Source: Methylophilaceae bacterium
GTDB taxonomy: Bacteria; Pseudomonadota; Gammaproteobacteria; Burkholderiales; Methylophilaceae
Length of the DNA: 45,494 nt
NCBI GenBank assembly: GCA_014190615.1
Contig: BJGS01000002.1
Coordinates: 1 to 45,494, forward strand
Direction: 5' to 3'
In this document: piece after piece, positions 31,739-36,761 of the stretch
How positions within the stretch are numbered: position 1 is the stretch's first letter
How the letters are laid out: every line of letters starts with the position of its first letter
Position numbers and translations under genes: made by a program
The notes under the pieces: model-generated
Database searches by the model: none
What the model was told of the DNA's origin: nothing
Seen by the model: only the letters and a program-made list of their open reading frames with translations

Positions 31739-32479
31739 ATGGAAGAAAATCGATTTTACCACTCTGAAAACCTAGAACTCAAACAAGTCGTTGAGTTAGG
31801 TTCACAAACCCATATTCACGCAACTAAAGTCTTAAGACTTAAAACGGGCGATAAATTCGCGCTTTTTAATGGTGATGGTTTTGACTATGTTGCTAAGGTG
31901 GCTGAAGTCACTAAACACAAAACACTTGTTGAAATTATTGATAAGTATGAAGTCAATCATGAGTCCCCTTTAACCATTACCCTTGCGCAAGGTCTTGCTG
32001 CAAGCGACAAAATGGACTGGATTATTCAAAAAGCGGTTGAGCTTGGCATCCAATCCATCCAACCTCTATTTACTGAGCGATCAATCGTTAAGCTGGATCG
32101 TGAAAGAGCAGATAAAAAACTGGAGCACTGGAGAACGGTGGCTCTTGCAGCATGTGAACAAACAGGACGAAGTGCTATTCCAAAAATTTTAAGCCCTCTT
32201 CCCTTAAGCCAATGGCTTAGTGATCAAGAGAAGCAAACTGAGACTTTGCGATTAATTCTCACGCCAGTCAAGGCACAAAATATTAATCATCTAAATCAAA
32301 AGCCTTCCTCTATTATTTTTATGGTGGGGCCTGAAGGAGGCTTCTCAGAAAAAGAAATGGCCTTAGCTTCCCATAGCGCTTTTATCCCGGTGAATTTTGG
32401 TGAGCGCATTTTAAGAACAGAAACGGCATCCATTGTGGCACTCTCCATTATGCAAAATTTATGGGGTGATTTTGCATAA
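31739..32479 (+). CDS. rsmE: 16S rRNA m3U1498 methyltransferase
   Basis: H..KVLRL, QKAVELG, ACEQTGR, VGPEGGFS, RILRTETA. Confidence 0.96.
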   Translation: MEENRFYHSENLELKQVVELGSQTHIHATKVLRLKTGDKFALFNGDGFDYVAKVAEVTKHKTLVEIIDKYEVNHESPLTITLAQGLAASDKMDWIIQKAVELGIQSIQPLFTERSIVKLDRERADKKLEHWRTVALAACEQTGRSAIPKILSPLPLSQWLSDQEKQTETLRLILTPVKAQNINHLNQKPSSIIFMVGPEGGFSEKEMALASHSAFIPVNFGERILRTETASIVALSIMQNLWGDFA

Positions 32480-32536
32480 AACGCAAAAAATTTGATATTT
32501 TTGTGAAAAATGTATGTAAAATATGCATTTTAAACA
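32473..32536. promoter_or_regulatory. Candidate operator boxes upstream of HTH-argA
   Basis: Three 13-bp pseudo-palindromes: TGCATAAAACGCA (32473), TGTAAAATATGCA (32515), TGCATTTTAAACA (32524). They lie near a TTGATA...TAAAAT promoter-like pair. Confidence 0.35.
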
Positions 32537-32548
32537 AATTATTAAATT

Positions 32549-34102
32549 ATGTCTCTCGGCGAAGCCATTAGAAAAAGAAGAAAGTCCTTAGGGGTCACTC
32601 TTCAAACACTCGCGCAAAACATTATGAGCGACCCTGGTAATCTTTCCAGAATAGAAAGAGGGGAGCAAAATGTCAGCGAAGCACAACTCTTAAAAATTTG
32701 TGAGGCTCTCAACTGCGCACCTTCGAGTCTTTTTGAGAATAACTTAGCCATCCATCCTATCCCAAAATTAGATAGTCAAACATTCGCAAGGTGGTTTAGA
32801 TTAGCTGCGCCCTTCATCAACACCTTTAGCAATAAAACATTTGTGATTGCTTTTGGTGGCGAGCTTCTCGATGAAAATCAATTTACTGCCCTTTCGCATG
32901 ACATCAATTTATTAACCTGTTTAAACGTCAAAATCGTTCTAGTTCATGGGGCAAGACCCCAGATTGATCAGAAACTCAAGAACAAGAAAATCTTTACCCA
33001 ACTCGTAAGAAATGTCCGTGTGACAGACGACTTTGTTATGGAGGGGGTGAAAGAAGCTAATGGCCTTATCAAAATTAATATTGAATCGACACTCTCCTCA
33101 AGTTTATTAAATTCACCCATGGCAGGAAGCGACATTAAAGTTTCGAGTGGAAATTTTATAACAGCCAAACCACTAGGCGTCATCGATGGTGTGGATATGC
33201 AACATACAGGGGAAGTAAGAAAAATTGATAGCGCTGCCATTAAGAAAAAATTAGAAAATAAAGAATTGGTTGTAATATCTCCTATTGGGTATTCACCTAC
33301 AGGTGAAGTATTCAATCTCACAATGGAAGATGTTGCGCTTAAAACTTCGATAGCATTAGAAGCAGATAAACTTATTCTTCTGATTGATTCGGATGGTATC
33401 TTTAATTTAAGAAATGAATTGCTTCATGAAATGACGTTAGAGAAAGCTATTAATCTTTATAAGAGCATTGAAAAAAATAACCCTAAAAAGCGTGACCTCA
33501 TTAACATTAGCACAAATGAATTAGATCTATTAGAGATTGCCATAAAAGCTTCCGAAGCAGGTATTCACAAAATTCATTTAATTAATAGGCATATTGATGG
33601 TGCAATCCTCCAGGAATTATTTACCGATGAGGGTGTAGGTACTGTGATTACCGAGAAAGCGCTCGATTCAATTAGACCCGCCACACATAATGATGTTAAA
33701 GGTATTCATAAACTCATTAACCCTCTAGAAGTTGGAGGCTATCTTATTAAAAGAGGTAAAGAAAGAATTGATCATGAGATAGAAAATTTCTTTGTGATCG
33801 AACATGATAATAAAATTATTGGCTGTGCTGCGCTTTATCCTTACATCGATCATGTCGAATTTTCATGTTTTGCTATTAATAAAAATTATCAATCAAAGGG
33901 CTTTGGTTCAAAACTTTATAATTACTGTGAGAGTATTGCGCGAGATAAAAAATATAAATATTTTTTTGCTTTAACCACAAGAACTGAGCATTGGTTCATC
34001 GAGAAGGGGTTTAAGGAAGAGAGTATTGAGAAGCTTCCTAAAGAAAGATTAGAATCTTATCAGCCTCAAAGAAATTCAAAATTTTTTATTAAAAAGCTTT
34101 AA
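32549..34102 (+). CDS. argA: Amino-acid N-acetyltransferase (N-acetylglutamate synthase) with N-terminal XRE-family HTH domain
   Basis: aa 1-63 are a Cro/C1-type HTH (LGEAIRKRRKSLGVTLQTLA...LSRIERGEQN...LLKICEALNC..SSLF). Then an AAK domain (FARWFRLAAPFI..KTFVIAFGGE, LVHGARPQI, GYSPTGEVFNL, ELFTDEGVGT) and a GNAT domain (QSKGFG, LTTRTEHWF, RNSK). Confidence 0.93.
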   Translation: MSLGEAIRKRRKSLGVTLQTLAQNIMSDPGNLSRIERGEQNVSEAQLLKICEALNCAPSSLFENNLAIHPIPKLDSQTFARWFRLAAPFINTFSNKTFVIAFGGELLDENQFTALSHDINLLTCLNVKIVLVHGARPQIDQKLKNKKIFTQLVRNVRVTDDFVMEGVKEANGLIKINIESTLSSSLLNSPMAGSDIKVSSGNFITAKPLGVIDGVDMQHTGEVRKIDSAAIKKKLENKELVVISPIGYSPTGEVFNLTMEDVALKTSIALEADKLILLIDSDGIFNLRNELLHEMTLEKAINLYKSIEKNNPKKRDLINISTNELDLLEIAIKASEAGIHKIHLINRHIDGAILQELFTDEGVGTVITEKALDSIRPATHNDVKGIHKLINPLEVGGYLIKRGKERIDHEIENFFVIEHDNKIIGCAALYPYIDHVEFSCFAINKNYQSKGFGSKLYNYCESIARDKKYKYFFALTTRTEHWFIEKGFKEESIEKLPKERLESYQPQRNSKFFIKKL

Positions 34103-34128: not shown

Positions 34129-35013
<885 letters not shown>

Positions 35014-35640
35014 TTGTCAAAAATTTGGATTTTTGATTTAGACGATACGCTACACGACGCAAGCTCTAAAATATTCCCAAGAATAAATCAGTCTATGACG
35101 GCTTATGTTAGTAATAAACTTAACATTAGCCTTGCCGATGCGCACCAACTTCGAGATAAATATTGGAAGGTATATGGTGCGACCTTAAAAGGTCTCATTC
35201 AAAATCATGGTGTGGATCCACAAGAGTTTTTACTCAACACACATGATGCAGAAGAACTATCCAAGTTTGTAAAACAATCTCATGCTCTAGAAAATACATT
35301 AAAAAAACTTAAAGGCAAAAAAATTGTTTTTACAAATGCGCCACTACATTATGCAATGGCTGTTATCAAAGCACTTCGTATTCAAAAATATTTTTCAGGG
35401 ATCTACAGCATTGAATCTACCAACTATAACCCTAAGCCTTCTCTCTATGCATTTAGGAAAATTCTAAAGCAACTTGGAAAAAGACCTAATCAATGTGTGA
35501 TGGTGGAAGATGATCTTGCTAATTTAAAAACAGCGCACATGATAGGCATGCAAACTATTTTAGTATCAAAGCTAAACAAAAAAACTGCTTTTGTCACAAA
35601 AAGAATTTCAAAAATACAGTACCTAACAAGAGAAGTTTAA
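35014..35640 (+). CDS. Pyrimidine 5'-nucleotidase-like HAD hydrolase
   Basis: FDLDDTL, YGATLKGL, FTNAP, PKP, MVEDDLANL; TTG start abutting argB. Confidence 0.88.
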   Translation: MSKIWIFDLDDTLHDASSKIFPRINQSMTAYVSNKLNISLADAHQLRDKYWKVYGATLKGLIQNHGVDPQEFLLNTHDAEELSKFVKQSHALENTLKKLKGKKIVFTNAPLHYAMAVIKALRIQKYFSGIYSIESTNYNPKPSLYAFRKILKQLGKRPNQCVMVEDDLANLKTAHMIGMQTILVSKLNKKTAFVTKRISKIQYLTREV

Positions 35641-36761
35641 ATAAACTTTTTTAATACATGAAGGCGCGCTTCATAAATTGACGCCTTAATATCAAGATTA
35701 GTTTTATTTTGACTAATTAATCCAAGATTTAGTTTATTAAGATGCTTGAGGTATTTTTGCAGTGCTTTTAAAGTGCTGCCTACTGACTTATATTTTTTAG
35801 CTTGGCCTTCATTGTATGCTTCCAATATCTTGATGATATCAATCAGCACATCTGGATTCCTAAATAAATCCATTTTATAAATTAAATCTAAAATTTGACG
35901 GGGCTTTAACTTTTTAAACTCTTTAAGATCAGTCATATTATCAGCTAATTTCTCAGTTAACTTTCTAACTGAGTTTGGTACTGATAGTCTTGTATAGATC
36001 TTTGCTATGTCTTTGACACTAGTCTTGGAGGTATATACATGCATGAAGAAAATTGCTGCTTTAATATCTAGCGAATATTTAAACTTATTTCCATATTCTA
36101 GGCTTCTCTTAATATAATTTTTATTTTTAACGTAATTAATTTCTGGAATCAATACCTGCAAAGCACCACATTGATGCAATACATCAAACATGAAGTGTGA
36201 TTTCTTTTCTAATAAACCAACTGAGATCTCATGCCAAACTCTTTCAGACGCTACCGCTTCTATCTCTTTGTTTTTTACGATTTTCTTGAGAATGGTTTGT
36301 GTCGTAGGATGAATTTTGAATTGATAAAATCTTGCAGAAAATCTAGCAATACGAAGAACTCTAATCGGGTCCTCTACAAAAGCTGAACTTACATGCCGAA
36401 GAATTTTATTTCTGATATCATCTATGCCGTTAAAAGGATCGATGAACTGTCCTCTTTTATCTTTTGCAATAGCATTTATAGTGAGATCTCTTCTTTCTAG
36501 ATCTTCTTCTAGCGTCACTTCCTTCGAAGCGTAAACTTTAAATCCCTTATAGCCTTTCGACACTTTTCTTTCAGTTCTAGCAAGCGCATATTCATAATGT
36601 GTCTTTGGGTGCAAAAAAACAGGAAAATCTTTACCTACAGGCTTATAGCCCAATTTGACCATTTCTTCACTCGTAGAGCCAACCACGACATAGTCTCTAT
36701 CCTTGACCGTTAAGCCCATGATTTGATCTCGAACCGCACCTCCTACAAGATATACCTTCAT
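35637..36761 (-). CDS. cca: tRNA CCA-adding nucleotidyltransferase (class II), lacking a recognisable HD domain
   Basis: YLVGGAVRD..DRDYVV, VGKDFPVFLHP, EYALARTERK, EEDLERRDLTINA, EDPIRVLRIARF. Confidence 0.93.
   Translation of the reverse strand: MKVYLVGGAVRDQIMGLTVKDRDYVVVGSTSEEMVKLGYKPVGKDFPVFLHPKTHYEYALARTERKVSKGYKGFKVYASKEVTLEEDLERRDLTINAIAKDKRGQFIDPFNGIDDIRNKILRHVSSAFVEDPIRVLRIARFSARFYQFKIHPTTQTILKKIVKNKEIEAVASERVWHEISVGLLEKKSHFMFDVLHQCGALQVLIPEINYVKNKNYIKRSLEYGNKFKYSLDIKAAIFFMHVYTSKTSVKDIAKIYTRLSVPNSVRKLTEKLADNMTDLKEFKKLKPRQILDLIYKMDLFRNPDVLIDIIKILEAYNEGQAKKYKSVGSTLKALQKYLKHLNKLNLGLISQNKTNLDIKASIYEARLHVLKKFI

Follow-up and report, generated by a model that had tools for sequence, protein, structure and literature searches.

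ArgR (AhrC) is an arginine-binding hexamer that reads tandem boxes. To our knowledge, the transcriptional control of arginine synthesis in betaproteobacteria, which lack ArgR, has been poorly described. Enzymes that double as repressors, or "trigger enzymes," form a known class that includes RbkR, BirA, NadR, and PutA (PMC5397151). In N-acetylglutamate synthase (NAGS, or ArgA) of the classical kind from Neisseria gonorrhoeae (NgNAGS), the N-terminal helices of neighboring subunits interlace on the two-fold axes of the hexamer, and arginine binds beside the C-terminal end of this helix, moves it, and contracts/widens the ring by ~20/10 Å (Shi et al. 2015; PMC4490483). The same source reports that arginine stabilizes the hexamer of Escherichia coli NAGS and that the Pseudomonas aeruginosa enzyme is hexameric with or without arginine; its main text contains no occurrence of "helix-turn-helix," "DNA-binding," or "transcription." Among prophage regulators, FsoR of the Salmonella phage Fels-1 has been described as a cleavable CI-like repressor (PMC3121763).

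We examined a 45,494-nt stretch of DNA from a bacterium of the Methylophilaceae, a family that uses methanol (contig BJGS01000002.1 of assembly GCA_014190615.1; the window). The initial annotation had described one uninterrupted 517-aa ORF in which an XRE helix-turn-helix (HTH) precedes a full ArgA with intact amino-acid-kinase (AAK) and GNAT domains and a retained ELFTxxGxGT arginine motif, with no convincing start at the junction. The gene (32549-34102, plus strand) is indeed a single open frame of 517 aa, and the Pfam scan suggested at the time placed HTH_3 (residues 7-59; E 2.5e-10, above the cut-off), AA_kinase (96-346), and Acetyltransf_1 (391-478) on the one chain. The NCBIfam amino-acid N-acetyltransferase models PRK05279 (569 bits; cut-off 344) and TIGR01890 (487; cut-off 203) matched from residue 75 or 79 to the C-terminal end. 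Codons 60-79 contain no in-frame ATG, GTG, or TTG, and a linker ATG occurs in only 7/106 distinct family genes. An independent contig from a public run crosses the HTH-ArgA junction; its linker has a +1/-1 pair that cancels out, leaving the frame intact. Over the first 100 aa, the closest named records are from Ca. Methylopumilus and other Methylophilaceae (81-92%).

An AlphaFold model of the fusion, built on a 56-row alignment, had a mean pLDDT of 82.3. The HTH (residues 1-63; 32549..32737, plus strand), delimited by the HTH_3 match, the model, and comparison with CI-type repressors, forms five confidently modeled helices (pLDDT 82-90 over residues 1-60), including the recognition helix D28-G38 (32630-32662, plus strand). 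Residues 64-78 are disordered (pLDDT under 50), and the rest adopts the NAGS fold. Within the disordered part, the linker proper (residues 64-76; 32738..32776, plus strand) is weakly conserved: none of its columns is 95% conserved, and its length varies from 6 to 51 residues across Methylophilaceae. We conclude that a DNA-binding domain is joined in frame to a complete ArgA on one chain in a real fusion.

The enzyme part consists of the ArgA N-terminal helix and amino-acid-kinase-fold domain with the arginine site (32777..33658), followed by the GNAT catalytic domain and the stop codon (33659..34102), all on the plus strand. Its best match, by sequence (E 5.7e-77) as well as by fold, is NgNAGS (PDB 2r8v, 3d2p). 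The residues that Shi et al. 2015 (PMC4490483) single out were placed by alignment to NgNAGS, with an inferred 20-residue offset: the arginine-site residues K201 and E270 correspond to K274 and E356 of the fusion, and the substrate-site residues R316, E353, C356, R425, and S427 to R402, E437, C440, R508, and S510. These positions are 99-100% conserved in 114 aligned proteins, with pattern counts of 96-98/99. The ELFTxxGxGT arginine loop lies at residues 356-365 and recurs as E-[LI]-[FM]-[TS]-x-x-G-x-G-T in 99/99 distinct full-length fusions, and the acetyl-CoA motif [RQ]xxGxG is Q448-G453. Residue 89 is Phe in the 517-aa protein and Tyr in 103/106. Judged by alignment, the catalytic and arginine-site residues are intact, and we infer by homology alone that the fused ArgA is hexameric, catalytically active, and inhibited by arginine. 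Because argJ is present in each of the 30 family genomes tested, a route for recycling acetyl groups coexists with ArgA, whose role may be limited to topping up the acetyl cycle; such a role is in keeping with tight control of only argA. Two family genomes carry frameshifts within ArgA, near residue 282 in one and residue 166 in the other; these may be sequencing errors, and neither disturbs the HTH-ArgA junction.

The survey of Methylophilaceae that had been called for found the fusion in frame in 146/151 genomes. The listed match starts at or before residue 10 in 128 of the 151. Of the 21 further genomes listed, we retrieved 20: in 18 of them the HTH and the ArgA helix share one frame, in one the linker contains a run of N, and in one the locus meets a contig end. 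As for the remainder, one is cut by a contig end (judged from coordinates), and two, of 71-74% completeness, have no argA entry. A stop or frameshift between the HTH and ArgA, named earlier as a possible sign of an assembly artefact, was not seen in the family, the single apparent break being the run of N; because the frame is kept in 146/151 genomes, the fusion is not such an artefact. We saw no HTH-less, split, or unfused argA in the 151 genomes, and eight shorter family matches considered as unfused forms look like fragments. Outside the family, none of the 145 matches listed in other families of the order starts before residue 49 (order-wide search of 201 genomes, 190 with a match; 42 matches lie beyond those listed, and one unpublished genome enters this tally alone). 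Such an HTH was found within 1.5 kb upstream of argA at 0/25 outside loci, and a FastTree tree of the enzyme part split the 25 outside sequences from all family sequences with a support of 1.0 (an unrooted split).

The HTH is under purifying selection. A check of dN/dS, also proposed at the outset, gave 0.093 for the HTH, 0.014 for the recognition helix, 0.023 for the AAK domain, and 0.037 for the GNAT domain across 17 genes of the genus; of the parts tested, the recognition helix is under the tightest constraint, and the HTH is conserved. Identity to 107 distant homologues, which were found using the N-terminus, was 62% for the HTH vs. 59% for the AAK domain. The fusion is also present in relatives with genomes of 3-3.7 Mb. 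It thus predates streamlining, which we reject as its cause, and the initial suggestion that the arrangement suits a streamlined genome is not upheld. Searches of 5 neighboring genomes turned up no free-standing precursor of the HTH, and a class-wide search of 300 genomes returned one unrelated XRE in a 158-aa frame. At five loci, the protein is a compact version of 500 aa whose linker has 6 residues and whose recognition helix has Lys in place of Arg34, and the TGTA-N5-TACA boxes are spaced by 41-42 bp; the HTH of this version stands apart from other ArgA HTHs in a weak tree, through drift or replacement. Databases name the fusion proteins simply "amino-acid N-acetyltransferase." A full-text search, from which subscription journals are mostly absent, returned no description of an HTH-ArgA fusion, and a mention elsewhere is possible; the fusion is apparently undescribed, although the enzyme-repressor class itself is already known.

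Two candidate operators lie at the argA promoter. The box matrix was trained only on 19 leaders from other genera, in which the palindrome found de novo, WWTGC-N7-GCAWW, had an information content of 12.5 bits vs. 5.1-5.6 bits in 8 shuffles. In the window, it identified a distal palindromic box, TTTGC-N7-GCAAA (32471..32487, no strand assigned; 19.6 bits), and a proximal one, TATGC-N7-ACAAA (32522..32538, no strand assigned; 14.8 bits), 27 bases before the start codon; both are predicted operators. A candidate -10 hexamer, TAAAAT (32517..32522, plus strand), suggested by sequence and family geometry, abuts the proximal box. The distal box is the top-scoring site in its own 1,218,605-base genome, and of the 18 sites of at least 13.5 bits there, these two are the sole intergenic ones by a crude ORF call. 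Two box copies were present in 11/11 held-out leaders of the window's genus. We fetched 80 family leaders, some of them counted as held out although their genomes had also entered the training, and scored 77, of which 71 contained a box of at least 12 bits, compared to 0/385 shuffles and 1/25 unfused argA leaders outside the family, which are GC-richer (A+T 0.29-0.58), a composition that by itself lowers their scores. At a threshold of at least 10 bits, the box was found in 100/104 distinct fusion leaders (104 of 106 genes had enough leader). A conserved candidate operator therefore accompanies the DNA-binding domain at its own gene.

The two boxes are mostly 29-30 bp apart, and otherwise 41-42 or 50-51 bp. 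Where the spacing is 29-30 bp, 56 loci have a distal box that opens with a TTG(C)A hexamer, and 17 nt on, a TA---T hexamer abuts the proximal box; this is the geometry of a repressor, although the hexamers are predicted and the region is A+T-rich. In the genus of the window, the distal box sits above the -35 region, 51 bp before the proximal one, and a sigma-70 consensus scan of the window's argA leader found no promoter on the plus strand. Here, the left half of the distal box (32471-32479) coincides with the last codons and stop of the upstream neighbor rsmE (31739..32479, plus strand; assigned by domain and family matches and given as context only). Because this half-site doubles as the -35 hexamer in most genera and as rsmE codons in this one, its conservation is partly of other cause. 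At loci with TGT-type boxes, the last rsmE codon is GTA instead of GCA. In a divergent small-genome clade (genus g26), the box persists at a shifted position, -10 to +7, where it overlaps the ATG and the conserved Met-Gln start forms its right half; the HTHs of this genus have a changed helix start, with Ser at 28 and mostly Ser at 30. One genome outside the family has a 15.2-bit box ~100 nt before the first helix of an argA that lacks the HTH; a search of that genome turned up no related HTH, and the box may be chance or a relic. Leu or Ile at residue 40 accompanies TGTA-N5-TACA proximal boxes in 24/29 genes vs. 0/72 scored Gln40 genes, in two lineages. As a specificity switch, residue 40 was rejected, since in five Leu40 genes of one clade a TGC half-site covers the start codon and Fels-1 has Gln yet TGT boxes; as a specificity determinant, it is a lead only.

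The operator appears to be confined to argA. Among 30 family genomes, a box of at least 12 bits was present within 400 nt of argD in 0/30, argJ in 0/30, argC in 0/29 (one locus being truncated), argH in 1/30, and carA in 0/30, or 1/149 in total, and within 1.5 kb for 7/149 of these genes, at scattered places. The genome of the window has no box at any of these genes or their operon leaders. The absence of the box before argD, argJ, argC, argH, and carA points to a self-repressor, not an ArgR substitute. ArgR was above the family cut-off in 0/151 family genomes; this says little, since ArgR is reported to be confined to gammaproteobacterial groups (Leyn et al.; accessible text of PMC5343134), and the anticorrelation with argR that had been proposed for examination is uninformative for the same reason. 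Thus the reading of the initial annotation as an enzyme-repressor stands insofar as an enzyme carries a DNA-binding domain and has a candidate operator at its own promoter; its extension to an ArgR-independent regulator of the pathway is contradicted by the 1/149 count. The next gene, argB (acetylglutamate kinase; 34129..35013, plus strand; TIGR00761 above the cut-off), begins 26 bases downstream of argA, and the two are likely co-transcribed; argB adjoins argA in 45/100 evaluable fusion loci, duplicates included. On the other side, rsmE is upstream in 94/124 fusion loci and also before most unfused argA genes. A HAD pyrimidine 5'-nucleotidase gene and then another gene, which by its motif looks like one for a CCA-adding enzyme, follow argB without gaps (34129-36761), and they may share the transcript.

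We searched the HTH against 1.84 billion representatives. The search returned fragments of the fusion, weaker multi-HTH proteins, and proteins of 210-220 aa with the same recognition helix; Peptidase_S24 was present in 4/5 aligned proteins of this last kind. On viral contigs, the best 80 of 275 matching stretches gave 56 distinct leaders; at 70% identity these fall into 8 clusters, one of which contributes 32/56. Scored with the argA-trained matrix, these phage cI leaders had a median best box of at least 10 bits in 7/8 clusters, vs. 1% of shuffles, mostly at -85 and -37. The commonest palindrome found de novo in the phage cI-cro gaps was TGCG-N5-CGCA (8/8 clusters), and the divergent phage Cro genes encode the same recognition helix. 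From 25 control repressor loci chosen without this helix, 17, mostly with other helices, were scored (5 had no start and 3 were duplicate or short); one, whose own helix is similar, reached 10 bits. Intended as a negative control, the 250 nt downstream of phage cI reached at least 10 bits in 65% of 54 cases, and we read these boxes as left-operator-like sites. In Fels-1, FsoR has the helix in common with its Cro, and three TGT-N7-ACA boxes of 11.7-12.4 bits lie between them (590-673). These loci describe a group of prophages with one recognition helix common to CI and Cro, and with TG(C/T)-N7-(G/A)CA palindromes between the two genes and often downstream of cI. These palindromes predict operators for Fels-1 and its relatives; a mapped phage operator of this type was not found in the accessible Fels-1 FsoR literature (PMC3121763).

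Among unfused HTHs, those of CI-type prophage repressors come nearest to the ArgA HTH, which is on average 48% identical (maximum 59%) to the CI repressors vs. 32% to Cro. Since a common helix and palindrome occur in two unrelated gene contexts, the fused HTH is likely the reader of the box and a CI repressor likely the donor of the HTH, on present sequence comparisons. A tree of the HTH (64 residues) was poorly resolved, with the HTHs of the divergent small-genome clade apart from the rest, and so fixes neither the donor nor a single origin. CI repressors of this recognition-helix type were not found in the 151 family genomes at E 1e-30, in a search without a positive control. The fusion itself has no S24 match and is flanked by rsmE and argB, and its prophage likeness is limited to the HTH.

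We propose that this ArgA with a CI-like HTH represses its own gene via two TGC-N7-GCA palindromes at the promoter, possibly with arginine as corepressor, and we consider this explanation as a whole to be probable. The fused enzyme would form the classical NAGS hexamer and, because the N-terminal helices of NAGS interlace, would display its six HTHs as three two-fold pairs, with ArgA standing in for the C-terminal oligomerization domain of CI. Two HTH pairs would hold both boxes; given that these, in most genera, lie over the predicted -35 and just after the predicted -10, RNA polymerase would be blocked at argA, and at argB where adjacent. Autorepression of this kind is, in our judgment, very probable. 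Arginine, bound beside the N-terminal helix, might then move the helix, reshape the ring, and tighten DNA binding, such that one signal would halt catalysis and synthesis of the enzyme alike; by analogy with NgNAGS, we put this arginine dependence at an even chance. At 75 loci, linkers of up to 16 residues accompany box spacings of 41-51 bp, and linkers of at least 20 residues accompany spacings of 29-34 bp, a relation that hints at bridging of the boxes, though largely in one clade; one locus, with 52 bp spacing and a long linker, is an apparent exception.

The main rival retains this autorepression core and drops the response to arginine. The hexamer would then supply HTH pairing and avidity only, holding the enzyme level steady at any arginine concentration, and we regard such ligand-blind dosage control as a serious contender, though less likely than not. 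Conservation of the arginine site (99/99) does not discriminate here, because feedback inhibition needs the site anyway. A linker that is long, variable, and disordered (6-51 residues) would relay a change of 10-20 Å poorly, weakening any rigid-coupling model, the P. aeruginosa hexamer does not dissociate, and the box is found at essentially no other arg gene (1/149). Set against this are the attachment of the HTH to the very helix that arginine moves in NgNAGS and the tracking of box spacing by linker length, mostly in one clade.

A second alternative is that the fusion acts as an activator or dual switch, stimulating argA at low occupancy and repressing it at high, or that arginine releases it from the DNA. 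Lambda CI acts dually at its own maintenance promoter. The CI ancestry of the HTH and the high distal box in the window's own genus are compatible with such behavior, but boxes on a -35-like hexamer and after a -10-like one at 56 loci, and over the start codon in one clade, occupy the positions of a repressor, and we find this alternative improbable. It is very unlikely that a separate regulator reads the palindromes and that the HTH does something else or nothing. The argA box fits the LysR T-N11-A pattern, the genome has two LysR-type and two other HTH_3 genes, and one outside genome has the box without the fused HTH; yet phages whose repressors share the recognition helix also have the palindrome in their cI-cro gap, box and fusion co-occur (71/77 vs. 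1/25 leaders), and the recognition helix is the part under strongest constraint. Hardly any weight can be given to a pathway-wide arginine regulator in place of ArgR, an idea that the finding of ArgR over the cut-off in 0/151 genomes invites and that the distribution of the box (1/149 genes at 400 nt, 7/149 at 1.5 kb, none in the genome of the window) opposes. An assembly or gene-calling artefact, or a vestigial domain, is refuted by family-wide conservation, the junction-spanning contig, and dN/dS, with a run of N as the sole break.

For the self-repressing HTH-ArgA, a tentative evolutionary history can be drawn, to which we attach limited confidence: a Methylophilaceae ancestor may have captured a prophage CI domain together with its operator, exchanging the cleavable oligomerization domain of CI for the arginine-sensing NAGS hexamer. 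A switch for phage lysogeny would thereby have become an enzyme-repressor gated by arginine, with one ring bridging the two operators. Since the operator is common to host and phage, the enzyme could also shut off invading phages that belong to this immunity group. The proposal offers a concrete circuit, with a named protein and sites, for Methylobacillus, Methylovorus, Methylotenera, Methylophilus, and freshwater Ca. Methylopumilus. If it is true, a hexameric, feedback-inhibited enzyme joins the short list of enzyme-repressors, a host gene has clearly adopted a phage repressor domain plus its operator, and an arginine-responsive single-chain repressor with a 17-bp site becomes a candidate biosensor part.

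Compared with classical NAGS (ArgA; N. gonorrhoeae), the fusion has the same AAK and GNAT domains, arginine site, and glutamate and acetyl-CoA residues, and differs by an added 63-residue HTH and linker. With the CI-type prophage repressors (xDxGN[LIV]SR[IL]ERG helix; Fels-1 FsoR), it shares the recognition helix and TG(C/T)-N7-(G/A)CA palindromes beside the gene; in place of Peptidase_S24 it has ArgA, and hence no self-cleavage, and argA has no divergent cro or prophage context. ArgR/AhrC is a functional parallel to the role proposed for HTH-ArgA, but has an unrelated fold, is not an enzyme, controls a whole regulon, and was not found in Methylophilaceae (0/151). RbkR resembles the fusion in its tandem palindromes and autoregulation (PMC5397151), both of which are predicted for HTH-ArgA. 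PutA, BirA, NadR, and RbkR belong to other enzymes and pathways, whereas the HTH-ArgA scaffold is predicted to be hexameric, its apparent target is its own gene only, and its HTH and operator trace to the prophage CI family.
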